Origin: Escherichia coli
Lineage (GTDB): Bacteria; Pseudomonadota; Gammaproteobacteria; Enterobacterales; Enterobacteriaceae
DNA: 64,000 nt
Assembly (NCBI RefSeq): GCF_030384885.1
Contig: NZ_CP128613.1
Direction: 5' to 3' (one strand)
Of the stretch, positions 35,074 to 64,000 are shown one piece after another. Each line of letters begins with the position of its first letter. Position 1 is the first letter of the stretch. The notes beneath the pieces were generated by a model. That model made no database searches and had not been told where the DNA came from. It worked only from the letters and a program-made list of their open reading frames with translations. Made by a program: the position numbers and the translations under genes.

Positions 35074-35116
35074 TTTTATTCTACAGGCCCACAGCAAGAG
35101 AGCCTGATAGTAACAG

Positions 35117-36400
35117 TTACTCAATCCGATCTTTGACAATAAAGAAGTAACACAGCGCCCCGGTGAACGTCACACAGGCCGCGATAACCAGCGCCAGATT
35201 AAACGAGTGCGTGGTATCCACTACCCAACCGGTTACGATCGGAGCAAAGGAAGCAAAAACAAAACTGCCAAAGTTTTGAATCCCGGCGATGGAAGCCACT
35301 TTTGTTTCTGACACCATCACCTGCACCAGTCCCCATGCAGATGTTCCCGCGAAATGCACGCAGAACAGCGCCATTGAGATAAACGCTACAGCCTGGGCTG
35401 GCGAGGAGGATTGCACTACCAGCAACGTGCCTAATGCCGACATCATCAAACCGCAGACAATAGCCGTTTTACGCGTCTTCGCCAGGTCGTAGCCTTTTTT
35501 CGCCAGCCGATCGACAACAATACCGTTAACCCACATCCCGACCGCCGCCGCGAGGAAAGGAATCGCCGCCACCCAACCGGTTTTCGCCAGACTGAAGCCT
35601 TGCTCGGCTTGTAAATAACCGGGTAACCACGCGATGTAGAGCCAACCGGTATAATTGACGCCAGAGAAACCTAAAATCATCCCCCAGGTTGTCCGATGCT
35701 TAAACAGCGCCAGCCACTCGCTAAATTGTAATTGTGGACGCGGTTTAACCGGCGCGGAGAGATAGGTCCGTTCTTCGTCGGTCAGGACAAACTGCGCCCG
35801 GTTGCGATACCACGCGTACCAACAGATCCCAACCAGAATCCCCGCCACGCCGATGATGACGAACATTGCCCGCCAGCCCCATGCCAGCTGCATCAATACA
35901 AGAGCAGGAGGCGCAATAGCCTGACCGATAACGGTAGATGAGTTAAAAATCCCCAGCGCCGTGCCGCGTTCTTTTTGCGCATACCAGTCGGTGATCGACT
36001 TTACTCCCGCAGGCATAAATGGCGCTTCGCCAATACCCAGACCGATACGCATTAAAATAAAGTGGCTAAAAGAATTAACCATTCCTGTTAATGCCTGCAT
36101 TAATGACCAGAATATTAAGCCTGCGCCTAAAACTATTCGTGGGCCAAAGCGGTCTAGCAAAATACCGGAAGGGAGTTGTGAAAAACCATAAGACAGAGAA
36201 AATGCAGAAAGCAAAACGCCAAATTCTGTCGCCGATAATCCTAACTCGCCACGAATCGCTTCGCCTGCCACGCTCAATGACGAACGGTCGAGGAAATTAA
36301 CGATCCCCGCCATAAATAATAAAACCAGCGTTACTGTCTGAATACGACGAATCCGTTGCGGTTTATTACCCGCAACACTGGTTGACACATCAACGTCCAT
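35117..36400 (-). CDS. MFS transporter, anion:cation symporter (ACS) family, sugar-acid (hexuronate/aldonate) type
   Basis: 427-aa polytopic membrane protein with N-terminal ...LLFMAGIVNFLDRSSLSVAG... typical of DgoT/ExuT/GudP-like transporters; 66 nt downstream of the dehydratase gene on the same strand. Not present at this position in K-12 as I recall it. Confidence 0.8.
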   Translation of the reverse strand: MDVDVSTSVAGNKPQRIRRIQTVTLVLLFMAGIVNFLDRSSLSVAGEAIRGELGLSATEFGVLLSAFSLSYGFSQLPSGILLDRFGPRIVLGAGLIFWSLMQALTGMVNSFSHFILMRIGLGIGEAPFMPAGVKSITDWYAQKERGTALGIFNSSTVIGQAIAPPALVLMQLAWGWRAMFVIIGVAGILVGICWYAWYRNRAQFVLTDEERTYLSAPVKPRPQLQFSEWLALFKHRTTWGMILGFSGVNYTGWLYIAWLPGYLQAEQGFSLAKTGWVAAIPFLAAAVGMWVNGIVVDRLAKKGYDLAKTRKTAIVCGLMMSALGTLLVVQSSSPAQAVAFISMALFCVHFAGTSAWGLVQVMVSETKVASIAGIQNFGSFVFASFAPIVTGWVVDTTHSFNLALVIAACVTFTGALCYFFIVKDRIE

Positions 36401-36466
36401 TTTTAGCTCCTTGAGCGGAATTAATCGATTTGCTGACTATTCAGAAAATAATTAAGCGAACCGTTA

Positions 36467-37681
36467 TTACCAGTTCCACAATGTGCCATCTTCCAGTCGT
36501 GCGACGGGGAGATACGCCGGGTCATACGGATATTTCGCCGCCAGTTTCTCATCGAAAGAAATACCCAGCCCCGGTTCATCGCCTGGGTGCATATAACCTT
36601 CATCGAAGCGCCAGCTGTGCGGGAAGACTTCAAGCATTTGTTCGGAATAGCCCATGTACTCCTGAACACCAAAGTTTGGCACCCAGAGGTCAAAATGCAG
36701 CGCCGCCGCATGACAAACAGGCGATAAATCTGAAGGGCCATGCGAACCGGTACGTACCTGATAAAGCGATGCAAAATCGGCAATCCGTCGCATCCCGGTA
36801 ATGCCGCCTGCATGGGTAATCGTCGTGCGAATATAGTCAATCAGCTGCTCTTCGATTAACTGCTTGCAGTCCCAGATACTGTTAAACACTTCACCGACCG
36901 CAATCGGCGTCACAGTATGCTGGCGAATCAGACGAAAACATTCCTGGTTCTCGGCAGGCGTCGGATCTTCCATCCAGAACAGGCGGTAATCCTCTATGCT
37001 CTTCCCAAAGCGTGCCGCTTCGATAGGAGTCAGGCGATGGTGCATGTCATGCAACAGATGTTCGTTAAAACCGAACTTATTACGCACCGCTTCAAATAAC
37101 TTCGGTGTAAAATCGAGATACTTTTCTGAAGACCACAAATGCTCTTCCGGCCACAGGCCTTTGGTTGCCGGTTCATACGCCAGTCCTTTGCCCTTCGCCA
37201 GGCCATAAGTGGTTTGCATACCCGGTACACCGCACTGCACACGAATCGCCTTAAAGCCCATCTGCTGGTGCTTTGCATAGTCTTCAAGGACTTCATCAAT
37301 CGTGCGCCCGGTGGTGTGGCAATAAACCATCACGCCTTCACGAGAAGCCCCACCAAGCAGTTGATACAATGGCATATTTGCCGCTTTGGCTTTGATATCC
37401 CACAACGCCATATCAATGGCAGAAATGGCCGACATCGTGACGGGGCCACGTCGCCAGTAAGCACCTTTATAAAAGAATTGCCAGATATCTTCAATACGGC
37501 TGGCATCGCGGCCAATTAATTGTGGACAAAGATGATCTTTCAGATAAGAAGCGACCGACAATTCGCGACCATTTAATGTGGCATCTCCCAATCCACAAAG
37601 TCCGCTTGCAGTGGTTATTTTAAGCGTAACGAAATTACGTCCTGGGCAAGTAACAAAAACATCTGCAGCAATAATTTTCAT
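36467..37681 (-). CDS. Enolase-superfamily dehydratase, RspA / D-mannonate dehydratase (ManD)-like
   Basis: 404-aa product from [43 protein letters not shown]..., recognised as a close relative of starvation-sensing protein RspA; AGGAG Shine-Dalgarno 8 nt before the ATG at 37681. The ORF-track extension to 37741 is rejected. Confidence 0.82.
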
Positions 37682-38165
37682 TATTGCAATCTCCTGTGTT
37701 GTAAATAGACGCTTCAAACTTAATTTTACGCCTACTACCATACAAGAGAGAAAGAGCGATTATTCAACCGTGATCACATTAAAAATAAAAATTTCCGCCG
37801 AGGAGCCCCCCCCCCTCAAAAACCACCTGAATAATTAACCATCATCGTTAAAACAACACGTTAAATAATCACATAACAAACTCCATTAATCATTAAAAAT
37901 GAGCGCAGCAATAGAAATGAATTATATTCAATTAATTAAAATATGTATTGATTGATGTATTGAAAATATGATTTTCATGGGGAGAGTGAAGGTAAAGAAG
38001 ACGCAAGAATAAAAAGGAATATGACAAATAATAGTTCTGGTTGGGCGTTAAATTTAAGGTCACCAGAATGCTGACAAATTTCTGCCTGAGGCAGTCCGCC
38101 TACGTAGTGTCGCTACTTTATAGGCGTGGTAAGCTCCCCATTTTCAGGGGAGCAATATAAACCAA

Positions 38166-47759: not shown

Positions 47760-48611
47760 ATGTATCACGACGTCAGCTATCTGCTCTCCCGCCTGATAAA
47801 CGGCCCACTGTCGCTGCGCCAGATTTACTTTGCCAGCAGCAACGGCCCGGTGCCCGATCTTGCGTATCAGGTCGATTTTCCACGGCTGGAAATTGTGCTG
47901 GAAGGTGAGTTTGTTGATACCGGCGCTGGAGCAACGTTAGTTCCCGGCGATGTGCTGTACGTTCCCGCTGGTGGCTGGAATTTTCCACAATGGCAAGCCC
48001 CCGCCACTACCTTTAGCGTGCTGTTTGGCAAACAGCAACTCGGCTTCAGCGTCGTGCAATGGGATGGCAAACAATATCAAAATCTGGCGAAGCAACACGT
48101 CGCCCGACGCGGCCCGCGCATTGGTTCTTTTCTGCTACAAACGCTCAATGAAATGCAAATGCAGTCGCAAGAGCAGCAAACGGCAAGGCTTATCGTCGCC
48201 AGCCTGCTTAGCCACTGCCGCGATTTGCTTGGCAGCCAAATCCAGACCGCCTCACGCAGCCAGGCACTGTTCGAAGCTATTCGTGATTATATCGACGAAC
48301 GCTATGCCTCCGCGCTTACCCGCGAATCTGTCGCACAGGCATTCTATATTTCGCCAAATTACCTCTCGCACCTGTTTCAAAAAACGGGGGCCATTGGTTT
48401 TAACGAATACCTGAATCACACGCGACTGGAGCACGCTAAGACGTTATTGAAAGGCTATGACCTGAAGGTAAAAGAAGTGGCGCACGCCTGCGGCTTTGTC
48501 GACAGCAACTACTTCTGCCGTCTGTTTCGTAAAAACACCGAACGCTCGCCGTCGGAATATCGCCGGCAGTACCACAGCCAACTGACAGAAAAACCGACTA
48601 CTCCAGAATAA
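47760..48611 (+). CDS. yijO: AraC-family transcriptional regulator
   Basis: 283-aa product with a C-terminal AraC-type HTH (...YISPNYLSHLFQK...FVDSNYFCRLFRK...). Confidence 0.9.
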   Translation: MYHDVSYLLSRLINGPLSLRQIYFASSNGPVPDLAYQVDFPRLEIVLEGEFVDTGAGATLVPGDVLYVPAGGWNFPQWQAPATTFSVLFGKQQLGFSVVQWDGKQYQNLAKQHVARRGPRIGSFLLQTLNEMQMQSQEQQTARLIVASLLSHCRDLLGSQIQTASRSQALFEAIRDYIDERYASALTRESVAQAFYISPNYLSHLFQKTGAIGFNEYLNHTRLEHAKTLLKGYDLKVKEVAHACGFVDSNYFCRLFRKNTERSPSEYRRQYHSQLTEKPTTPE

Positions 48612-48939
48612 GATGGGTTTGCTGCGGCGCAGAAAGCACTTTGCGCACCGCGCTCATTACCCGCTGCGGCTCACGCAGGAATGCGTAGATGCTGCATTGC
48701 ACATAGCGGCAATGTTCAAATCGCTCGGCACCGGCAAGCTCGATATCCGTAATCAACAGCGCAACATCCGCCCGACGGATATCCTCGTCCGCTAAACGAT
48801 TCTCCGTCCCCAGCGCGCCCTGAGTTTCAATGCTGACGCCCCACTTCTCTAACTGGCACAACTTTTCCAGCCGTTCCGCCGCCATATAAGTATGCGCCAC
48901 GCCACTGACGCAGGCGGTTACTGCCACCAGGTATGCCAT
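48598..48939 (-). CDS. frwD: Fructose-like PTS EIIB component 2
   Basis: 113-aa product from MAYLVAVTACVSGVAHTYMAAERLEKL...; 3' end overlaps the yijO 3' end by 14 nt (convergent). Confidence 0.88.
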   Translation of the reverse strand: MAYLVAVTACVSGVAHTYMAAERLEKLCQLEKWGVSIETQGALGTENRLADEDIRRADVALLITDIELAGAERFEHCRYVQCSIYAFLREPQRVMSAVRKVLSAPQQTHLILE

Positions 48940-48940
48940 T

Positions 48941-49819
48941 TTAACCTCCCACGGTAACCTGAAATCCGGCCCGTTCTGCCATTTCGCGCATCGTTGCCAC
49001 ATCGGCTGACGACGGCGCTGGCACCTCTTTCATCGACCATGTTTTCCCCAGCAGACGGTATTTTGGTTCGCCGTACTGATGAAACGGTAACAGATGGATC
49101 TGCCTGATATTCAGCGGGATCAGCACGTCCAGCGCCTGCTGCATATTCTCCCGGCTGAGTGTGAAACCAGGGATCAGCGGTAAACGCGGGGTCACGTTGA
49201 CACCCTCACTCACCAGCAAACGCAAGTTCTCCAGCACGCGTGGCAAGTTCATCTTCACCACATCCCGCGCCTGAGTCACGTCCATAATTTTTAAATCGAA
49301 CAACACTTCATCGCACAATTTCGCCAGCGGTAACAACTTGCTGGTCGGCGCGTCTCCGGCAGTTTCGATAGCGCATGACACGCCCCACAGACGAAGTCGC
49401 TGTAAAAAACGGGTAGCAAACTCCGCCTGCATTAACACTTCGCCGCCAGAAAGCGTGACGCCGCCGCCGGACGCGCGAAAGAAAATGTCATCTTTCATCA
49501 CTTCCCGCTCCAGCGCGTCAAGGCTGATATCGCGACCAATCCGTTCAAACGCACCGGAAGGGCATTCATCCGCATCACGCAAACATTTCGCGCAGTGCAG
49601 GCATTTCGCCTCTCTGCGTACCGTCTGGATTTTGCCGGAGATCGACTCCGGATTAGCACACCACGGGCAAAGATGCGGGCAGCCTTTAAAAAAGACCACC
49701 GTACGAATGCCCTCGCCGTCATTCAGTGAATAACGCTGAATGTTGAAAATGCGCGCCACATCATTGCGGCGCGTTTCCACAACGTTACAGCTGATGCGCT
49801 GTCCGGCGGATGATGTCAT
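48941..49819 (-). CDS. pflC: Glycyl-radical enzyme activating protein (radical SAM)
   Basis: 292-aa product from MTSSAGQRISCNVVETRRNDVARIF... with CPHLCPWC radical-SAM motif; start overlaps the pflD 3' end by 35 nt. Confidence 0.9.
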   Translation of the reverse strand: MTSSAGQRISCNVVETRRNDVARIFNIQRYSLNDGEGIRTVVFFKGCPHLCPWCANPESISGKIQTVRREAKCLHCAKCLRDADECPSGAFERIGRDISLDALEREVMKDDIFFRASGGGVTLSGGEVLMQAEFATRFLQRLRLWGVSCAIETAGDAPTSKLLPLAKLCDEVLFDLKIMDVTQARDVVKMNLPRVLENLRLLVSEGVNVTPRLPLIPGFTLSRENMQQALDVLIPLNIRQIHLLPFHQYGEPKYRLLGKTWSMKEVPAPSSADVATMREMAERAGFQVTVGG

Positions 49820-52082
49820 CCTGGATCTCCTTCGACAATTCAACAAAGAAGGCGCTGTATCCGGCTACGCGCACCACCAGCCCGGCATAGTCCTGTGGGC
49901 GCTGTTGGGCTTCCCGCAACGTGTCAGCGTTCACCACGTTAAACTGAATATGCTGCAACTTAAGCTGGGTAAATGCCCGTAAGAAGTCGGCTAGTTTGCG
50001 TAATCCCGCTTCACCTTCCAGGGTCGCCGGAGTGAATTTCACGTTCAGCAACGTACCGTTAGAAAGCAGCGTGTTATCGAGCTTGCTGACTGATTTCAGT
50101 ACCGCCGTTGGTCCTTGTGCATCCTGGCCCAGCATGGGAGACAAACCACCGTCTGCCAGTTGTTCCCCGGCAAAACGGCCGTCTGGCGTCGCACCAACCA
50201 CCGATCCCAACGGGACGTGAGCAGAAACGGTATACGATCCCGGCGTGAAGTAGCCGCCGCGCGGGTTCTGGTATTTTTCCACTTCTTTGCAGTAATGACG
50301 CAGGAGTTCGGCGCTAATGTTATCCACCTCGTCGATATCGTTACCGTATTTCTCAAAGCGGTTAATTAAGCGAGCGCGGACTTTTTCGCCTTCTGGCGTT
50401 GCGAAGTTGGCTTTTAATACCGACAGCAATTCGTCAAAACTTAAACGCTGTTGCTCAAAAACCATCCCTTTCAACGCATGGAGAGAATCGCTCAGGTTGG
50501 CGATACCGATCCCCTGTACGCCGGAGAAGTTATAACGCGCGCCGCCATCGGTAATATCGCGGCCTTTTTCCAGACAATCGCTGATAAACGACGAGAGCAG
50601 CGGTACAGGGGCCCAGTCACGGTGACCGATATCACAAATATTGCTGCCTTCAACCATCAGGGTGATGTAGTGGCTGATCTTGGCGCGGATCTGTTCCAGC
50701 AAACCTTCATAACTCAGCGTGGCATTACCTTCATTTTCATGCAGGCAGATTTCCATCACTTTCAGCAGGTTAAACATCGCGATGTCATGCAGACCATAGG
50801 TTCTGCCAGGAATAGATAACTCCACGCAACCCACTACGGAATAATCGCGCGCATCTTCCAGCGAAACGCCACGATTGAGGAACGCTGGCACCACCACTTC
50901 ATCGTTGAAGATTTGCGGAATACCCGTGCCGAGGCGAATGGTTTCTGCGGTTATCATCAGGAACGGCGTGTCGATCAAGGCGTTAGTGCGCACACCCAGG
51001 TTCGGTTGTGGTAATTGCACGCTTTGATAGGCATCGAGGCAAAGGAACGAAAGCACGTTCACCGCGCTACGTCCGTTTTCGGTTAACCCACCGAGCAGGG
51101 CGGTATAGCCGGTCGGGAAACCTGCGAAATAGCGCGCGCTGCTGGTGGAGCGCAACAGCACGATGTCGTTGCATTTCACCCATAAAGATTCGAGCAGTTC
51201 TTTCAGGAACGCCGGATCTTCGCCCTGGGTTAATGATGCCTGATAGAATGGCAACATATACTGGTCGAAGCGCCCTAAAGACAGCGAGCTGGCGTTGGAT
51301 TCGTATTGCAGAATGATGTTCATGTACCAGAACAACTGGCACGCTTGCCAGAACGTCTGCGGCTTATGTTCGGCGTTATGGCGGGAGATCTCCGCGATAG
51401 TCAGCAGTTCTTCGCGACGCTGGGCATCGGTGCAGTTTGCCGCCATCGTTTCCGCCAGTTCGGCGTAACGCAAAATGTGTTTCTGCGAGGCTTCGAGCAA
51501 TAACAGCGCAGCCTGATAAAAGTGATTCTCCGGCTGTTGCTGGCAATGTTGCTGCATCTGCGCCACCAGCTCACCCAGCCCGTGATTCAGCAGGCGCGGG
51601 TAATCAATAATGATGTGCCCCTGGCCTTTATCTGTCTGGTTGATACTGAAAATCTGCGTGCTGGTCGCGGCTTTTACTTCATCCGTCATCTGCCCGTTAA
51701 TGAAATCTTTCATCGAGCGTTTTTCCCAGTATGGGAACAGCTCTTCGCGGTAGATACGTTTATCTTCTTCACTAATGGCGAAGCGGTCCTGCGGTCGCGT
51801 CGGAAATTGATCCAGCTCTTTCAGCAGCCAGTAAGGGTCCATTTCCGGCGACATAATCCCGGCGCGCGGTTTTACGGTACGGTTACCAGCAATCAGTTCT
51901 TCATCACGAATCGAAATTTCAACATGTTCAAGGATATACGCTGTTGCTTTCGCCCGGCGCAATATCACTGGTTCGCCTTCGGTTTGCCGATGGCTGGCGG
52001 TATAAAGCAGCGCCCGCTCCAGCGAGATTTCACGGGTATTAGCAAACAGTGCAGTTTTAAGGCGAGAGATACGATTCGTCAT
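49785..52082 (-). CDS. pflD: Glycyl-radical enzyme (formate acetyltransferase 2 / PFL-like)
   Basis: 765-aa product ending with the glycyl-radical motif region ...VVRVAGYSAFFVELSKEIQDDIIRRTAHQL. Confidence 0.95.
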   Translation of the reverse strand: MTNRISRLKTALFANTREISLERALLYTASHRQTEGEPVILRRAKATAYILEHVEISIRDEELIAGNRTVKPRAGIMSPEMDPYWLLKELDQFPTRPQDRFAISEEDKRIYREELFPYWEKRSMKDFINGQMTDEVKAATSTQIFSINQTDKGQGHIIIDYPRLLNHGLGELVAQMQQHCQQQPENHFYQAALLLLEASQKHILRYAELAETMAANCTDAQRREELLTIAEISRHNAEHKPQTFWQACQLFWYMNIILQYESNASSLSLGRFDQYMLPFYQASLTQGEDPAFLKELLESLWVKCNDIVLLRSTSSARYFAGFPTGYTALLGGLTENGRSAVNVLSFLCLDAYQSVQLPQPNLGVRTNALIDTPFLMITAETIRLGTGIPQIFNDEVVVPAFLNRGVSLEDARDYSVVGCVELSIPGRTYGLHDIAMFNLLKVMEICLHENEGNATLSYEGLLEQIRAKISHYITLMVEGSNICDIGHRDWAPVPLLSSFISDCLEKGRDITDGGARYNFSGVQGIGIANLSDSLHALKGMVFEQQRLSFDELLSVLKANFATPEGEKVRARLINRFEKYGNDIDEVDNISAELLRHYCKEVEKYQNPRGGYFTPGSYTVSAHVPLGSVVGATPDGRFAGEQLADGGLSPMLGQDAQGPTAVLKSVSKLDNTLLSNGTLLNVKFTPATLEGEAGLRKLADFLRAFTQLKLQHIQFNVVNADTLREAQQRPQDYAGLVVRVAGYSAFFVELSKEIQDDIIRRTAHQL

Positions 52083-52132
52083 GAGGAACTCCTGTGGGGA
52101 AGCGAACCCGCCCTTGCGAGCGGGATAAGGAC

Positions 52133-52453
52133 TTAAGCGGTTTGTGCCAGGTGAGCTTCAATTTTGCTCATAATGGCGTCAGCGCGTTTTACCGCGTCGC
52201 TGATGTTGACGCGCACAATGGTCTTGCCAGCAAAACGCTCTTCAAACTTGATGCCGATATCTTTGGTCAGAATCACCATATCGGCGCTCGCCACGTCTTC
52301 CGCAGTCAGTTCATTTTCCAGACCAATCGAGCCCTGAGTTTCTACTTTCACTTCCCAACCTTTCGCTTTCGCAGCGCTTTCAAGCGCCTCTGCCGCCATA
52401 TAAGTATGGGCAACACCAGATGGACATGCGGTTACTGCAATAATTTTCGTCAT
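52133..52453 (-). CDS. frwB: Fructose-like PTS EIIB component 1
   Basis: 106-aa product MTKIIAVTACPSGVAHTYMAAEALESAAKAKGWEVKVETQG... Confidence 0.92.
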   Translation of the reverse strand: MTKIIAVTACPSGVAHTYMAAEALESAAKAKGWEVKVETQGSIGLENELTAEDVASADMVILTKDIGIKFEERFAGKTIVRVNISDAVKRADAIMSKIEAHLAQTA

Positions 52454-52467
52454 GGCTCGTTCCTCAA

Positions 52468-53547
52468 TTAATTAATTTCAAAATCCAGATCCAGGTCGTC
52501 TTCCTTCTCATCAGTCGAAGGCCCATTTTTACGCGCCAGACTTTTCAGCACGTTCACACAAACTGCTGTCACTACTGCCCCGACAGCCACTGCGGCGATA
52601 TAACCCAGCTTGCCTTCAACCACAGGCAGCACAATCAGACCACCCCAGCCTGCATAGCACTGCGCACCGACCAGCGCCGCAGTCACTGCACCACAAACTG
52701 AACCGACCATGATGGAAGGAATGACACGCAGCGGATCGGCAGCGGCGAAAGGAATCGCCCCTTCAGTAACCCCAACACACCCCATCACCAACGCCGCTTT
52801 GCCGGTTTCGCGCTCTTCTGCAGAGAAATTTTTACGACCAATCAGCGTCGCCAGCCCCATGCCCAACGGTGGAACACAAATCCCCACGGCAGCAATGGCC
52901 ACCACGGTATAAACGCCCTGAGCCACACAGATCAGCATGAAGGCATAGGCCACTTTGTTAACCGGGCCGCCCATATCAAAGGCCAGCATCAATCCCATGA
53001 TCACCGCCAGCATCACTACGCTGCCTTGTTGCATGCCCTGAAGCCACTGGGTCAGGCTGTTGGTCAACGCCCCCACCGGCTCGCCCAGTCCCCACATCAT
53101 GACACCAGCGGTAATCAGTGTGCCGACGATCGGAATGATGAAGATTGGCATCACCGAGCGCAGAACTTTATGCACCGGAATTTTCTTCAGGTAATGCACC
53201 ACGATGCCGCCGATAATCCCGGCGATCAGCGCGCCAAAGAAGCCCGCACCAAAGCTGTTACCAACCCAGGCACCGATAGCGCACGGAGCCAGCGCAGAAC
53301 GTTCTGCAATGGAATAACCGATGTACGCTGCGAGGAAAGGCACCATCAGCGTCAACCCCGCAACGCCGATATCAAACAGTTTTTTTAGATTCGGATCGGC
53401 TACGGCATCCGGCACTGCGCCTTTGCCATACAACATGACGGAAACCGCCAGCAAAATACCGCCCGATACCACGAAGGGAATCATATGTGAAACGCCCGTC
53501 ATTAAATGCTGACGGGTATTTTTCAGGATCTGCACCAACTCATTCAT
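52468..53547 (-). CDS. frwC: Fructose-like PTS EIIC permease
   Basis: 359-aa polytopic product from MNELVQILKNTRQHLMTGVSHMIPFVVSGGILLAV...; the 7-codon upstream extension is rejected. Confidence 0.9.
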   Translation of the reverse strand: MNELVQILKNTRQHLMTGVSHMIPFVVSGGILLAVSVMLYGKGAVPDAVADPNLKKLFDIGVAGLTLMVPFLAAYIGYSIAERSALAPCAIGAWVGNSFGAGFFGALIAGIIGGIVVHYLKKIPVHKVLRSVMPIFIIPIVGTLITAGVMMWGLGEPVGALTNSLTQWLQGMQQGSVVMLAVIMGLMLAFDMGGPVNKVAYAFMLICVAQGVYTVVAIAAVGICVPPLGMGLATLIGRKNFSAEERETGKAALVMGCVGVTEGAIPFAAADPLRVIPSIMVGSVCGAVTAALVGAQCYAGWGGLIVLPVVEGKLGYIAAVAVGAVVTAVCVNVLKSLARKNGPSTDEKEDDLDLDFEIN

Positions 53548-53855
53548 AAGCTGCTCCCGGGCTTGCAAAAGCCCATGTCCATATTTTTGATGGAGGAAAC
53601 AATAGGCAATCGCAGGCGGAGCAAACAGTGGATAAAAAGGCCATTTACTGGACTTTTGTAATATCAGTACAAAAATGCGATCCGCCTCATAACTTGCGAT
53701 AACCCGGAAGCATGCCGCAGAACGGCGTCTTGTGAGACGCGTCGCAAATTGACGGTTACATTACATTTGTCCAGCTTTTGGCAGATTTGTCACATGGCAG
53801 GCCGTTGCCGTGCGCTCTTATCCTGTAAACAGAAAACCGTACCGGGAGAGAGGCA

Positions 53856-56357
53856 ATGGCCCTGATTGTGGAATTTATTTGTGAGCTACCTAACGGCGTA
53901 CATGCGCGTCCGGCAAGCCACGTTGAAACGCTGTGTAATACTTTTTCATCACAAATTGAGTGGCATAACCTGCGCACTGACCGCAAGGGCAACGCCAAAA
54001 GCGCCCTTGCGCTGATTGGCACCGATACGCTGGTGGGCGATAACTGCCAGTTACTGATTTCCGGGGCCGACGAGCAGGAAGCGCACCAGCGTTTAAGCCA
54101 ATGGCTGCGCGATGAATTCCCCCACTGCGACGCACCGCTGGCAGAAGTAAAATCTGACGAACTGGAGCCGCTGCCGGTTTCACTGACCAACCTGAATCCG
54201 CGAATTATCCGCGCCCGCACCGTGTGCAGCAGTAGCGCAGGCGGCATTCTGACGCCGATCTCTTCTTTAGATCTCAATGCGCTGGGTAATCTTCCCGCTG
54301 CCAAAGGCGTTGACGCCGAGCAATCCGCGCTGGAAAACGGCCTGACGCTGGTACTGAAAAACATTGAGTTTCGTCTGCTGGATAGCGACGGTGCTACCAG
54401 CGCGATTCTGGAAGCGCACCGATCCCTGGCTGGCGATACTTCCCTGCGCGAACATTTACTGGCAGGCGTCTGCGCCGGATTAAGCTGCGCCGAAGCAATT
54501 GTTACCAGTGCGAATCACTTTTGCGAAGAGTTTTCCCGTTCCAGCAGCAGCTACCTGCAAGAACGCGCGCTGGATGTGCGCGATGTCTGCTTCCAGTTAC
54601 TCCAGCAAATCTACGGCGAGAAACGCTTTCCGGCACCGGGCAAGCTGACGCAGCCCGCCATTTGTATGGCTGATGAACTGACCCCTAGCCAGTTCCTCGA
54701 ACTGGATAAAAATCACCTCAAAGGATTGTTGCTCAAAAGTGGCGGCACTACCTCACACACGGTGATCCTTGCCCGTTCGTTCAACATTCCGACGCTGGTT
54801 GGTGTGGATATTGATGCCCTTACTCCGTGGCAGCATCAAACGATTTATATCGACGGCAACGCTGGGGCGATTGTGGTTGATCCTGGAGAAGCCGTAGCCC
54901 GTTATTATCAGCAAGAAGCCCGCGTACAGAACGCCCTTCGTGAGCAACAGCGTGTCTGGCTGACCCAACAAGCCCGTACCGCTGACGGTATCCGCATTGA
55001 AATTGCCGCTAACATCGCTCACTCCGTCGAAGCGCAGGCCGCATTCGGCAATGGTGCGGAAGGCGTTGGTTTGTTCCGCACTGAAATGCTCTATATGGAT
55101 CGCACCAGTGCACCGGGCGAAAGCGAGCTGTACAACATTTTTTGTCAGGCGCTGGAGTCCGCCAACGGACGCAGCATTATTGTGCGCACTATGGATATTG
55201 GCGGTGACAAACCCGTTGATTATCTGAATATTCCCGCAGAGGCAAACCCGTTCCTCGGTTATCGCGCCGTGCGTATTTATGAAGAGTACGCGTCGTTATT
55301 TACCACGCAGCTACGATCGATCCTGCGCGCCTCCGCTCATGGTAGCCTGAAAATCATGATCCCGATGATCTCTTCAATGGAAGAGATCTTATGGGTGAAA
55401 GAAAAACTGGCAGAAGCTAAACAGCAGCTGCGTAACGAACACATTCCGTTTGATGAGAAGATCCAGCTCGGTATCATGCTTGAAGTGCCGTCAGTAATGT
55501 TCATCATCGATCAATGCTGTGAGGAGATTGATTTCTTTAGTATTGGTAGTAATGACCTGACGCAATATCTGCTGGCAGTGGATCGCGATAACGCTAAGGT
55601 AACTCGTCACTACAACAGCCTGAATCCGGCATTCTTACGAGCGCTTGATTACGCCGTGCAGGCAGTGCATCGCCAGGGCAAATGGATTGGTCTGTGCGGT
55701 GAACTGGGGGCGAAAGGTTCCGTGCTGCCGTTGCTGGTCGGTTTAGGGCTGGATGAGTTGAGCATGAGTGCACCGTCAATTCCGGCGGCGAAAGCGCGAA
55801 TGGCGCAACTTGATAGCCGCGAATGCCGCCAGTTACTCAACCAGGCAATGGCCTGCCGTACTTCGCTGGAAGTGGAACACCTGCTGGCACAATTCCGCAT
55901 GACGCAACAGGATGCACCACTGGTCACCGCCGAGTGCATCACGCTGGAAAGCGACTGGCGCAGCAAAGAAGAAGTGCTCAAAGGCATGACCGATAACCTG
56001 CTGCTGGCGGGCCGCTGCCGCTATCCGCGTAAACTGGAAGCCGACTTGTGGGCGCGCGAGGCCGTTTTCTCTACCGGTCTGGGCTTTAGTTTTGCCATTC
56101 CACACAGCAAATCAGAACACATTGAGCAGTCCACCATCAGCGTGGCGCGTCTGCAAGCGCCAGTGCGCTGGGGCGATGATGAAGCACAATTCATCATTAT
56201 GTTAACCCTTAACAAACACGCTGCCGGCGATCAGCATATGCGCATTTTCTCGCGCCTCGCTCGCCGCATCATGCACGAAGAATTCCGTAACGCGCTGGTT
56301 AACGCCGCCTCTGCCGACGCTATCGCCAGCCTGCTGCAACATGAACTGGAACTGTAA
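53856..56357 (+). CDS. ptsA: Multidomain PTS protein (HPr-like, Enzyme I-like, EIIA-Fru-like)
   Basis: 833-aa product [28 protein letters not shown]... (HPr-like His), central PEP-utilising Enzyme I domain, C-terminal EIIA-like domain. Confidence 0.93.
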
Positions 56358-56368
56358 AAGGAAACATC

Positions 56369-57031
56369 ATGGAACTGTATCTGGACACCGCTAACGTCGC
56401 AGAAGTCGAACGTCTGGCACGCATATTCCCGATTGCCGGGGTAACAACTAACCCGAGCATTATCGCGGCCAGCAAGGAGTCCATCTGGGAAGTACTGCCG
56501 CGTTTGCAAAAAGCGATTGGTGATGAGGGTATTTTGTTTGCTCAGACCATGAGTCGTGACGCACAGGGGATGGTGGAAGAAGCGAAGCGCCTGCGCGACG
56601 CCATTCCGGGCATCGTGGTGAAAATCCCGGTGACTTCCGAAGGTCTGGCCGCCATTAAGATGCTGAAAAAAGAGGGTATTACTACACTTGGCACCGCTGT
56701 ATATAGCGCCGCACAAGGATTATTAGCCGCGCTGGCAGGGGCAAAATATGTTGCTCCGTATGTTAACCGCGTCGACGCCCAGGGCGGTGACGGCATTCGT
56801 ACGGTTCAGGAGCTGCAAGCGCTGTTGGAAATGCACGCGCCAGAAAGCATGGTGCTGGCTGCCAGTTTTAAAACACCGCGTCAGGCGCTGGATTGTTTGC
56901 TGGCAGGATGTGAGTCCATCACCCTACCCTTAGATGTAGCGCAACAAATGCTCAACACTCCTGCGGTAGAGTCGGCTATAGAGAAGTTTGAGCACGACTG
57001 GAATGCCGCATTTGGCACTACTCATCTCTAA
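56369..57031 (+). CDS. fsaB: Fructose-6-phosphate aldolase 2 (transaldolase-like)
   Basis: 220-aa product [37 protein letters not shown]... Confidence 0.93.
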
Positions 57032-57041
57032 AGGAGCAATT

Positions 57042-58145
57042 ATGGACCGCATTATTCAATCACCGGGTAAATACATCCAGGGCGCAGATGTCATTAATCG
57101 TCTGGGCGAGTACCTGAAGCCGCTGGCAGAACGCTGGTTAGTGGTGGGTGACAAATTTGTTTTAGGTTTTGCTCAATCCACTGTCGAGAAAAGCTTTAAA
57201 GATGCTGGACTGGTAGTAGAAATTGCGCCGTTTGGCGGTGAATGTTCGCAAAATGAGATCGACCGTCTGCGTGGCATCGCGGAGACTGCGCAGTGTGGCG
57301 CAATTCTCGGTATCGGCGGCGGTAAAACCCTCGATACAGCCAAAGCACTGGCACATTTCATGGGTGTTCCGGTCGCCATTGCCCCGACCATTGCTTCAAC
57401 CGACGCGCCTTGTAGCGCTCTTTCCGTTATCTACACTGACGAAGGTGAATTTGACCGCTATCTGCTGTTGCCAAATAACCCGAATATGGTCATTGTCGAC
57501 ACCAAAATCGTCGCGGGCGCACCTGCACGTCTGTTAGCGGCGGGTATCGGCGATGCGCTGGCGACCTGGTTTGAAGCGCGTGCTTGCTCTCGTAGCGGTG
57601 CGACCACAATGGCGGGCGGTAAGTGTACTCAGGCAGCGCTGGCGCTGGCTGAACTGTGCTACAACACGCTGCTGGAAGAAGGCGAAAAAGCGATGCTTGC
57701 CGCCGAACAGCATGTAGTAACTCCAGCACTGGAACGCGTGATTGAAGCGAACACCTATTTGAGCGGCGTTGGCTTTGAAAGCGGTGGGCTGGCTGCGGCG
57801 CACGCGGTGCATAACGGCCTGACTGCAATACCTGATGCCCATCACTATTATCATGGTGAAAAAGTGGCATTCGGTACGCTGACGCAGCTGGTTCTGGAAA
57901 ATGCGCCGGTGGAAGAAATCGAAACCGTAGCTGCACTTAGCCATGCGGTAGGTTTGCCAATAACCCTCGCTCAACTGGATATTAAAGAAGATGTCCCGGC
58001 GAAAATGCGGATTGTGGCAGAAGCGGCATGTGCAGAAGGTGAAACCATCCACAACATGCCTGGCGGCGCGACGCCAGATCAGGTTTACGCCGCACTGCTG
58101 GTAGCCGACCAGTACGGTCAGCGTTTCCTGCAAGAGTGGGAATAA
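57042..58145 (+). CDS. gldA: Glycerol dehydrogenase
   Basis: 367-aa product from [39 protein letters not shown]...; the upstream ATG at 56988 is rejected. Confidence 0.93.
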
Positions 58146-63499: not shown

Positions 63500-63545
63500 A
63501 CATCTATCCGTTTAGACGTCCAGATGTAAAGATGAAGGAAAAGCT
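63500..63545 (-). promoter_or_regulatory. Putative MetJ operator (tandem met-box-like octamers) in the metF promoter
   Basis: Minus strand reads acatctgg-acgtctaa-acggatag-atgtgcac, degenerate repeats of the AGACGTCT met box, 45-90 nt upstream of the metF ATG. Confidence 0.5.
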
Positions 63546-63808
63546 GAAGGGCGTCAACCGAAAAATGACCAATGATGGTGAGGAAAAATCAGGGAAGATG
63601 AAAAAAATTCAGGATAAAGGCCAAAGTTCCTCGTACCTGAACATGTGGAATATACCTCATTTAAGATGATATTTATTTGTTTAATTATTTTTTCTATTAA
63701 CCGGTGCAACGAGTGTTAAAGCGTGTAATTTTAGGATTATATCAATAGTCACGGTTATACAAACAGTGATAATTTATGAAATAATTTTATTTACCAGAGG
63801 AATAGCGC

Positions 63809-64000
63809 ATGTATCTTAATACTCAAGTTCAATATAATAAGTTAAATAAAGATGAAAAAAAGATCCTGTTGTTACAAAAGCTAGCCCATTTAACTGATTT
63901 TACTTTTGACAGAATAGAGACATTTTCAGCATTTGGACAATCTACTGAAACAGGTGTTTTTAAATATAAAGATGGCAATGAATTTGTTGTTGTCCCCGGG
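63809..64000 (+). CDS. Hypothetical protein, N-terminal fragment (runs off the window); AT-rich, probably accessory
   Basis: ATG at 63809 with AGAGGA Shine-Dalgarno 8 nt upstream; open for 64 codons to the window end (MYLNTQVQYNKLNKDEKKILLLQKLAHLTDFTFDRIETFSAFGQSTETGVFKYKDGNEFVVVPG); base composition and codon usage are markedly AT-rich relative to the rest of the window. No family recognised. Confidence 0.4.
   Translation, partial: MYLNTQVQYNKLNKDEKKILLLQKLAHLTDFTFDRIETFSAFGQSTETGVFKYKDGNEFVVVPG

Follow-up and report, generated by a model that had tools for sequence, protein, structure and literature searches.

What sugar, if any, is served by the frwCB-pflDC-frwD genes of Escherichia coli and the divergent ptsA-fsaB-gldA genes beside them, which bring together a phosphotransferase system (PTS), a glycyl-radical enzyme (GRE) with its activase, an aldolase and a dehydrogenase, and do the two halves of this locus work together? 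We consider this question for the copy of the locus at positions 48598-58145 of a 64,000-nucleotide stretch of E. coli contig NZ_CP128613.1 (the window), together with the adjoining regulator gene yijO. A first-pass annotation, made from the sequence, had left the cluster as functionally unassigned and had offered an anaerobic sugar or sugar-alcohol pathway as a candidate role. The label is out of date, as the substrate of PflD was published in 2024 (per PMC12441222), the very kind of report that the annotation itself had named as turning the locus into an ordinary one; the guess pointed in the right direction, given that this substrate is 1,5-anhydromannitol-6-phosphate (AM6P) (PMC12441222).

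The reading we favour, at a probability of roughly 0.85, is that the locus encodes an anaerobic, self-contained route for the use of 1,5-anhydromannitol (AM), which Ma et al. (2024) called "radical-mediated glycolysis". As summarised in a 2025 review (PMC12441222, for Ma et al., JACS 2024;146:26187), PflD converts AM6P, formed beforehand by PTS phosphorylation, to 1-deoxyfructose-6-phosphate, and the related enzyme YbiW acts likewise on 1,5-anhydroglucitol-6-phosphate with 1-deoxyfructose-6-phosphate as the product. Both E. coli anhydro-sugar pathways start with PTS phosphorylation to the 6-phosphate, and the cleavage that follows requires a glycyl radical (PMC12441222).

Enzyme class of PflD and the proposed pathway

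PflD carries its radical glycine, Gly741, in the motif R738-V-A-G741-Y (Pfam Gly_radical, 108 bits) and has a domain resembling pyruvate formate-lyase (PFL) as well. Its catalytic Cys419 lies within VVGCVELS, in a loop of the form G-Cys419-Val-Glu421, and a search for the Cys-Cys pair of PFL found no CC dipeptide anywhere in the protein. Against the PFL equivalog TIGR01255 PflD scores 121.5 bits, below the cutoff of 994.2; models of dehydratase and lyase GREs give 500-575 bits, and the NCBIfam PFL2-3 subfamily gives 1345 bits. Because PflD lacks the Cys-Cys pair and stays below the TIGR01255 cutoff, "formate C-acetyltransferase", its name in RefSeq, in NCBIfam NF007437 and under nearly all public names, fails its own defining tests. 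A full-length match (1723 bits, about 1% difference) was obtained to PDB 8YJO, deposited as "Probable dehydratase PflD"; K-12 PflD, in the same genomic position, differs at 8 residues (99% identity), and the YbiW structures (8YJN and 8ID7, "Probable dehydratase YbiW") match at 482 bits. PflC has the CxxxCxxC motif at residue 47 (C47-PHL-C-PW-C) and scores 261 bits (cutoff 174) on TIGR02494, the family of glycyl-radical enzyme activating proteins.

In their fold, their glycyl-radical motif, a lone catalytic Cys followed two positions later by a Glu, and a TIGR02494-type activase, PflD and PflC resemble the systems of B12-independent glycerol dehydratase (1R8W), CutC and HypD, which eliminate water or an amine, whereas PflD acts on a phosphorylated cyclic anhydro-sugar and opens an ether ring (PMC12441222). 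The best 120 matches in a homologous-protein search with PflD were all from Enterobacterales, at identities of at least 89%. The closest non-orthologous representatives (P0122, P0124 and P0126; 43-47% identity, on short metagenome contigs) have no PTS gene or identifiable aldolase gene nearby and were set aside; they are probably radical enzymes of other functions. Separately, a metagenome contig (ERZ16299706 NODE_2954, locus L006, 6198-15895) encodes two tandem PFL-like GREs, two activases, a 623-residue protein without a Pfam match, an AraC regulator and an ATP-binding cassette (ABC) sugar transporter; it appears to be an uncharacterised sugar locus based on radical enzymes.

The PTS proteins offer a route to the phosphorylated substrate. 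PtsA comprises the Pfam domains PTS-HPr (residues 7-84), PEP-utilisers_N/mobile/C (146-653) and PTS_EIIA_2 (690-829), with the active-site motifs GVH16ARPA in HPr, GGTTSH301 in enzyme I (EI) and FAIPH (His at about 750) in the enzyme IIA (EIIA) domain. FrwC, the enzyme IIC (EIIC), scores 718 bits on NF007787 and 302 bits (cutoff 158) on the fructose-family model TIGR01427. As for the enzyme IIB (EIIB) proteins, FrwB scores 210 bits on NF007783 (cutoff 135) and 138 bits on TIGR00829, with its phospho-cysteine, Cys11, in the motif VTAC, and FrwD, with a Pfam PTS_IIB match, scores 225 bits on NF007747 (cutoff 153) and 88 bits on TIGR00829, with Cys10 in the same motif. To judge from these motifs, the HPr-EI-EIIA phosphorelay in PtsA is complete, and all the required His and Cys residues, those of the EIIBs included, are present; gene context points to AM in preference to fructose as the sugar that would be transported.

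Downstream of PflD stand an aldolase and a dehydrogenase of well-defined families. FsaB scores 351.5 bits on TIGR00875 (cutoff 246), matches the fructose-6-phosphate aldolase (FSA) structures 1L6W (E = 1e-97) and 9LKP, and has within VVKIPVT a lysine, Lys85, that from established knowledge of FsaA we take to be the Schiff-base catalytic residue. GldA, whose sequence is identical to that of K-12 GldA, scores 752.6 bits (cutoff 700) on NF047954, the equivalog for 1,2-propanediol/glycerol dehydrogenase. FSA is documented to accept hydroxyacetone as an aldol donor, a property applied to the synthesis of 1-deoxysugars (PMC7767278), and fsaB and gldA have been described as anaerobically induced genes (PMC6643234).

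On this basis the pathway would begin with the phosphorylation of PtsA by phosphoenolpyruvate (PEP) and the passage of the phosphoryl group to FrwB and/or FrwD, and FrwC would import AM as AM6P. PflC would set the radical on Gly741 of PflD, which, via Cys419, would open AM6P at its C1-O5 ether ring and so yield 1-deoxyfructose-6-phosphate, the conversion itself being the published step (PMC12441222). By known enzymology, FsaB probably cleaves this product to glyceraldehyde-3-phosphate, which would enter glycolysis, and hydroxyacetone, which GldA probably reduces, with NADH, to 1,2-propanediol. Expression would be driven from two divergent promoters of one design, each with a CRP site, a conserved operator of about 34 bp, presumably bound by YijO, and a -10 element. 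The abstract of Ma et al. is said to describe the splitting of 1-deoxyfructose-6-phosphate into glyceraldehyde-3-phosphate and hydroxyacetone by FsaA/FsaB, and reportedly also the reduction of hydroxyacetone to 1,2-propanediol by GldA and anaerobic growth of E. coli on both anhydro-sugars.

A related set of genes stands at a second E. coli locus. In K-12, ybiW-ybiY adjoins fsaA, the other FSA gene, so that a paralogous GRE, its activase and an FSA aldolase are again found together in a divergent arrangement, and the two systems have 1-deoxyfructose-6-phosphate as their common product (PMC12441222). Unlike the pflD locus, that of ybiW has no dedicated PTS, gldA or yijO-like gene beside it.

Candidate divergent promoters and the probable regulator YijO

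The 308-bp spacer between frwC and ptsA was aligned across 18 species, from E. coli to Vibrio. Two near-invariant blocks stand out from an otherwise diverged spacer and are reverse complements of each other; each promoter, read in its direction of transcription, presents a CRP-like site, about 13 nt, an operator of about 34 bp with the consensus TTACA-N4-TCCAG-N4-TGGC-N5-T.TC, about 22 nt, and a conserved -10-like element (Table 1). The ptsA-side operator begins 95 nt ahead of the ATG of ptsA. The 64-kb window contains exactly two copies of the operator core, TTACA-N4-TCCAG, against 0.06 occurrences expected by chance. A one-genome-per-species scan yielded 80 loci with PflD orthologues (73-99% identity) in Enterobacteriaceae, Yersiniaceae, Hafniaceae, Orbaceae (Gilliamella, Zophobihabitans), Pasteurellaceae (Necropsobacter) and Vibrio, and in most of these the paired operators recur at a spacing of about 113 bp, the pair being absent from the pflDC loci that have no frw genes. 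The core was also sought at the ybiW-fsaA locus and not found there, so there is no evidence for YijO control of the paralogous pathway.

Of the two CRP sites, that of the frwC promoter has experimental support, as a CRP site detected by chromatin immunoprecipitation sequencing between ptsA and frwC in enterotoxigenic E. coli H10407 (PMC4287617) is identical in sequence to TGCGATCCGCCTCATA. In the site on the ptsA side the half-sites are conserved and the spacer between them is variable, and Gilliamella, Necropsobacter and Zophobihabitans have the perfect consensus. A scan of 47.5-58.6 kb with sigma-70 and terminator consensus models returned fewer sites than shuffled sequence and none in the control region; the absence of a sigma-70 consensus there fits activator-dependent promoters and is otherwise uninformative. 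Screening of 47.5-58.7 kb against Rfam gave no match to a known RNA family.

This design resembles that of araBAD-type promoters, in which a CRP site lies upstream and is followed by an AraC-type operator (here of about 34 bp) reaching the -35 region, with an AraC-family gene nearby (here yijO), a likeness that draws on general knowledge of araBAD and on the candidate -10 elements. A difference is that yijO converges on the 3' end of the operon and does not diverge from the promoter as in the araBAD type. No description of the two mirror-image promoter modules was found in the literature searched.

YijO was listed as uncharacterised in surveys of 2016 and 2022 (PMC4797297, PMC9308461). Pfam recognises in it HTH_18 (77 bits) and HTH_AraC and finds no N-terminal domain; its AlphaFold model (pLDDT 85) combines an N-terminal beta-barrel, in which residues 22-115 form a beta domain of eight strands, with a domain of two helix-turn-helix (HTH) motifs. 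In Foldseek comparisons this C-terminal double HTH reached TM-scores of 0.8-0.9 to the DNA-binding domains of AraC, MarA and SoxS, the full-length protein matched Rns, ToxT and CsvR at a low overall TM-score (0.3), and cupin matches were weak.

The E. coli proteins were compared by tblastn with the 80 loci, and linkage was counted in the 65 full-length ones, which span 20 kb or more. Of these, 60 have frwC; all 60 have yijO as well, in 56 of them no more than 400 bp from frwD, and the yijO/frwD pair stays adjacent even where it is separated from the remaining locus, in Gilliamella, Necropsobacter and Zophobihabitans. The first-pass annotation had described yijO as an AraC-family gene that is adjacent and convergent; the position holds, and the coding ends of yijO and frwD in fact overlap by 14 nt (48598-48611), but its implied status as an outsider does not, as these comparative data make it a member of the module. 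Since it occurs in all 60 frw loci, lies near frwD and has an AraC-family fold, YijO is the candidate binder of the operator, and it is probably a dedicated regulator of the locus; the control region probably holds two divergent promoters of one design whose operator YijO binds. We regard it as an even bet that YijO senses AM or its 6-phosphate and, with CRP, would activate both divergent operons through the two mirror-image operators. FrwD, whose gene remains beside yijO in the loci where the pair is split off (L071, L073 and L075-L080), may be a phospho-sensing partner of YijO instead of a transport component. The overlapping coding ends leave no room for terminators between frwD and yijO, and as this convergent pair is in a list of E. 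coli "excludons" defined by RNA sequencing (PMC12288877), transcriptional interference at the overlap may be a further source of feedback.

Integrity, linkage and competing explanations

The gene coordinates in Table 1 come from the RefSeq annotation of the matching record and from an independent check of open reading frames and translations, which together bear out the gene order, strands and intactness given in the first-pass annotation. All nine genes start with ATG behind a Shine-Dalgarno-like GGAG or AGGA and have no internal stops, and the nine proteins have the same lengths as their K-12 MG1655 counterparts. The reported overlap of pflD and pflC is exactly 35 nt (49785-49819); of 74 related loci in other species, 73 have the same overlap, which supports the annotated pflC start. 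The remaining junctions are tight, those between minus-strand genes measuring 1, 14 and 50 nt and those between plus-strand genes 11 and 10 nt. The K-12 locus frwCB-pflDC-frwD/ptsA-fsaB-gldA (b3945-b3954) agrees in genes, order, strands, lengths and overlaps, and differs by 2-6% of nucleotides per gene, nearly all synonymous, with the structure unchanged. The cluster is thus real and conserved, and a chance pattern is excluded; the region is an ordinary allele, in another strain, of a known E. coli locus.

Table 1. Genes and candidate control elements of the locus, by position in the window
Feature	Position	Strand	Size	Description
yijO	47760-48611	+	283 aa	AraC/XylS-family regulator
frwD	48598-48939	-	113 aa	second PTS EIIB
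pflC	48941-49819	-	292 aa	radical-SAM activase of PflD
pflD	49785-52082	-	765 aa	glycyl-radical enzyme
frwB	52133-52453	-	106 aa	PTS EIIB
frwC	52468-53547	-	359 aa	PTS EIIC permease, fructose family
frwC-ptsA intergenic region	53548-53855		308 bp	divergent control region; 18-species alignment
candidate -10 of frwC promoter, TATTGT	53599-53604	-		putative; within conserved block CCTATTGT
operator A TTACAAAAGTCCAGTAAATGGCCTTTTTATCCAC	53628-53661	-		candidate YijO site, frwC promoter; near-invariant in 18 species
CRP site 1 TGCGATCCGCCTCATA	53676-53691			frwC promoter; positionally conserved
CRP-like site 2 TGTGAGACGCGTCGCA	53731-53746			ptsA promoter; one mismatch to TGTGA-N6-TCACA
operator B TTACATTTGTCCAGCTTTTGGCAGATTTGTCACA	53761-53794	+		candidate YijO site, ptsA promoter; mirror image of A
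candidate -10 of ptsA promoter, TATCCT	53819-53824	+		putative; within conserved block TTATCCTGT
ptsA	53856-56357	+	833 aa	fused HPr-EI-EIIA(Fru) phosphoryl-transfer protein
fsaB	56369-57031	+	220 aa	fructose-6-phosphate aldolase 2
gldA	57042-58145	+	367 aa	L-1,2-propanediol/glycerol dehydrogenase

Beyond E. coli, frwC, frwB, frwD, ptsA and yijO accompany pflD in 60 of the 65 full-length loci, and 56 of these 60 also have fsaB. The aldolase gene lies directly 3' of pflC in Gilliamella and, as a 40%-identical member of the aldolase/transaldolase family, between pflC and frwD in Vibrio. Given this linkage, the placement of the aldolase and the adjacency of fsaA to ybiW, the core module is a regulator, a PTS, a radical enzyme, its activase and an aldolase. 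The genes are also well kept within the species: relative to K-12, nucleotide divergence runs from 1.9% (yijO) to 5.7% (fsaB), with 0-10 amino acid differences per protein (none in FrwB, at 5.6% nucleotide divergence), and the ratio of nonsynonymous to synonymous divergence (dN/dS) is 0.00-0.065 over the nine genes (0.019 for yijO) at dS values of 0.08-0.29. Purifying selection on the locus is strong; with such ratios the genes are not decaying, and in that sense not cryptic.

These data bear on three other explanations. That PflD is a second PFL, with PflC its activase and Frw a cryptic fructose PTS, is what the databases convey, with PflD as "formate C-acetyltransferase" and Frw as "fructose-like" in RefSeq, in NCBIfam (NF007437 for PflD) and under nearly every public name, and the PTS components do fall in the fructose family by sequence; but with a Cys-x-Glu loop and no Cys-Cys pair, 121 bits against a cutoff of 994, "Probable dehydratase" as the PDB depositors' name and AM6P as the published substrate (PMC12441222), this account of PflD is very improbable. 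The low expression of fsaB under laboratory conditions (PMC7767278), and the "putative" labels that persist in K-12 RefSeq, would suit a locus that is complete but cryptic, without an established substrate and possibly silent or decaying. Such a view is scarcely credible for genes whose substrate has been published (PMC12441222), whose dN/dS does not exceed 0.065 despite a dS of up to 0.29, and which are found in 5393 of 5426 E. coli genomes and conserved across four bacterial families.

A separation of the two halves deserves somewhat more attention. ptsA-fsaB-gldA would then be a dihydroxyacetone (DHA)/glycerol operon that merely neighbours frw-pflDC, FsaB condensing DHA with glyceraldehyde-3-phosphate and GldA interconverting DHA and glycerol; growth on DHA is slower when fsaB or gldA is deleted and doubles when the two are overexpressed together (PMC6643234), and gldA is linked to pflD in just 36 of the 60 loci. 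However, ptsA is linked in every one of the 60 loci and fsaB in nearly all, out to Vibrio and Gilliamella, where an aldolase gene follows pflC in the same operon, the same conserved operator stands at both divergent promoters, and DHA did not induce fsaB or gldA (PMC6643234). We hold both the separation and the division of labour that goes with it to be unlikely; the DHA role of fsaB and gldA is probably a side activity, compatible with an AM pathway.

Several observations nevertheless weigh against the AM pathway as we have drawn it. The published function of PflD is taken here from the summary in one review (PMC12441222) and from the names of PDB entries, and the transporter appears in that review merely as "a PTS", with FrwCBD/PtsA unnamed as the AM transporter. 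A single EIIC, FrwC, is accompanied by two separate EIIBs, FrwB and FrwD, both with a phospho-cysteine motif. The FNR consensus TTGAT-N4-ATCAA was looked for, allowing up to two mismatches, and none was found in the E. coli frwC-ptsA spacer, nor was anything positionally conserved in the spacers of other species. Linkage of gldA is weak (36 of 60 loci, or 60%), so that this gene looks like a later addition within Enterobacteriaceae, and fsaB and gldA contribute to DHA use as well (PMC6643234). Finally, five loci, four in Kluyvera and relatives (L039, L040, L046, L056) and one in Edwardsiella piscicida (L084), have pflDC (80-86% identity) and neither frw, ptsA nor fsaB, nor the operator motif; the PTS is therefore not obligatory for PflD. 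In Kluyvera ascorbata, pflDC adjoins hypD/hypE-like (hydrogenase-maturation), fhlA-like and AraC-like genes.

Allelic background and significance

The stretch 48598-58145 is 100% identical to positions 3282674-3292221 of NZ_CP027579.1, from E. coli 2013C-4282, a human stool isolate, and among 5426 complete E. coli genomes this strain itself gives the only match of at least 99% over the frw region, which is present at a coverage of at least 80% in 5393 of them. A foreign origin of the locus, which the low identity to other E. coli might suggest, was considered and rejected, given the divergence of the whole window from K-12 (2.4-4.3%, with synonymous divergence up to 0.29) and the mosaic pattern of alleles. 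Strains such as MFDS1022581 and N96 are 99.5-99.7% identical to the window at 39.5-47.5 kb and reach 97.7-98.1% over the frw locus, with a sharp rise in the density of single-nucleotide polymorphisms near 47.5 kb; the mosaic over 39500-63000 suggests recombination among old E. coli alleles.

Elsewhere in the window, a two-gene insertion at 35078-38165, between oxyR and argH, encodes a major facilitator superfamily (MFS) transporter and the D-mannonate dehydratase ManD; K-12 lacks it and has only about 55 bp between the homologous segments on either side. After metF, at 63500-64000 and beyond, an accessory hypothetical protein is followed by a protein of the pyridoxal phosphate (PLP)-dependent aminotransferase family, content that differs from that of K-12 (the metL/metB side) and of MFDS1022581 (5'-nucleotidase genes), and the region looks like a variable junction.

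The locus and the function of PflD were already known, and the prediction of a CRP and YijO operator architecture is a modest addition. Public names lag behind: NCBIfam release 20 (June 2026), in NF007437, and RefSeq keep PflD as "formate C-acetyltransferase" despite the 2024 assignment, the Frw proteins are still "fructose-like" or "fructose" PTS components in RefSeq and NCBIfam, with the K-12 RefSeq genes "putative", and K-12 YbiW is still annotated as "putative pyruvate formate lyase". With the PflD and Frw names outdated, genome scans will keep flagging the locus as unassigned or misassigning it. 1,5-Anhydro-sugars are derived from diet and host, and 1,5-anhydroglucitol is both a clinical marker of glycaemia and the toxic precursor in the neutropenia of G6PC3 deficiency and glycogen storage disease type Ib (GSD-Ib), so that the regulation, in gut Enterobacteria, of the use of its relatives is of some medical interest. 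For E. coli itself, the conserved arrangement of CRP sites and operators, with yijO strictly inherited alongside, provides a concrete route to assigning one of its last uncharacterised AraC-family regulators.

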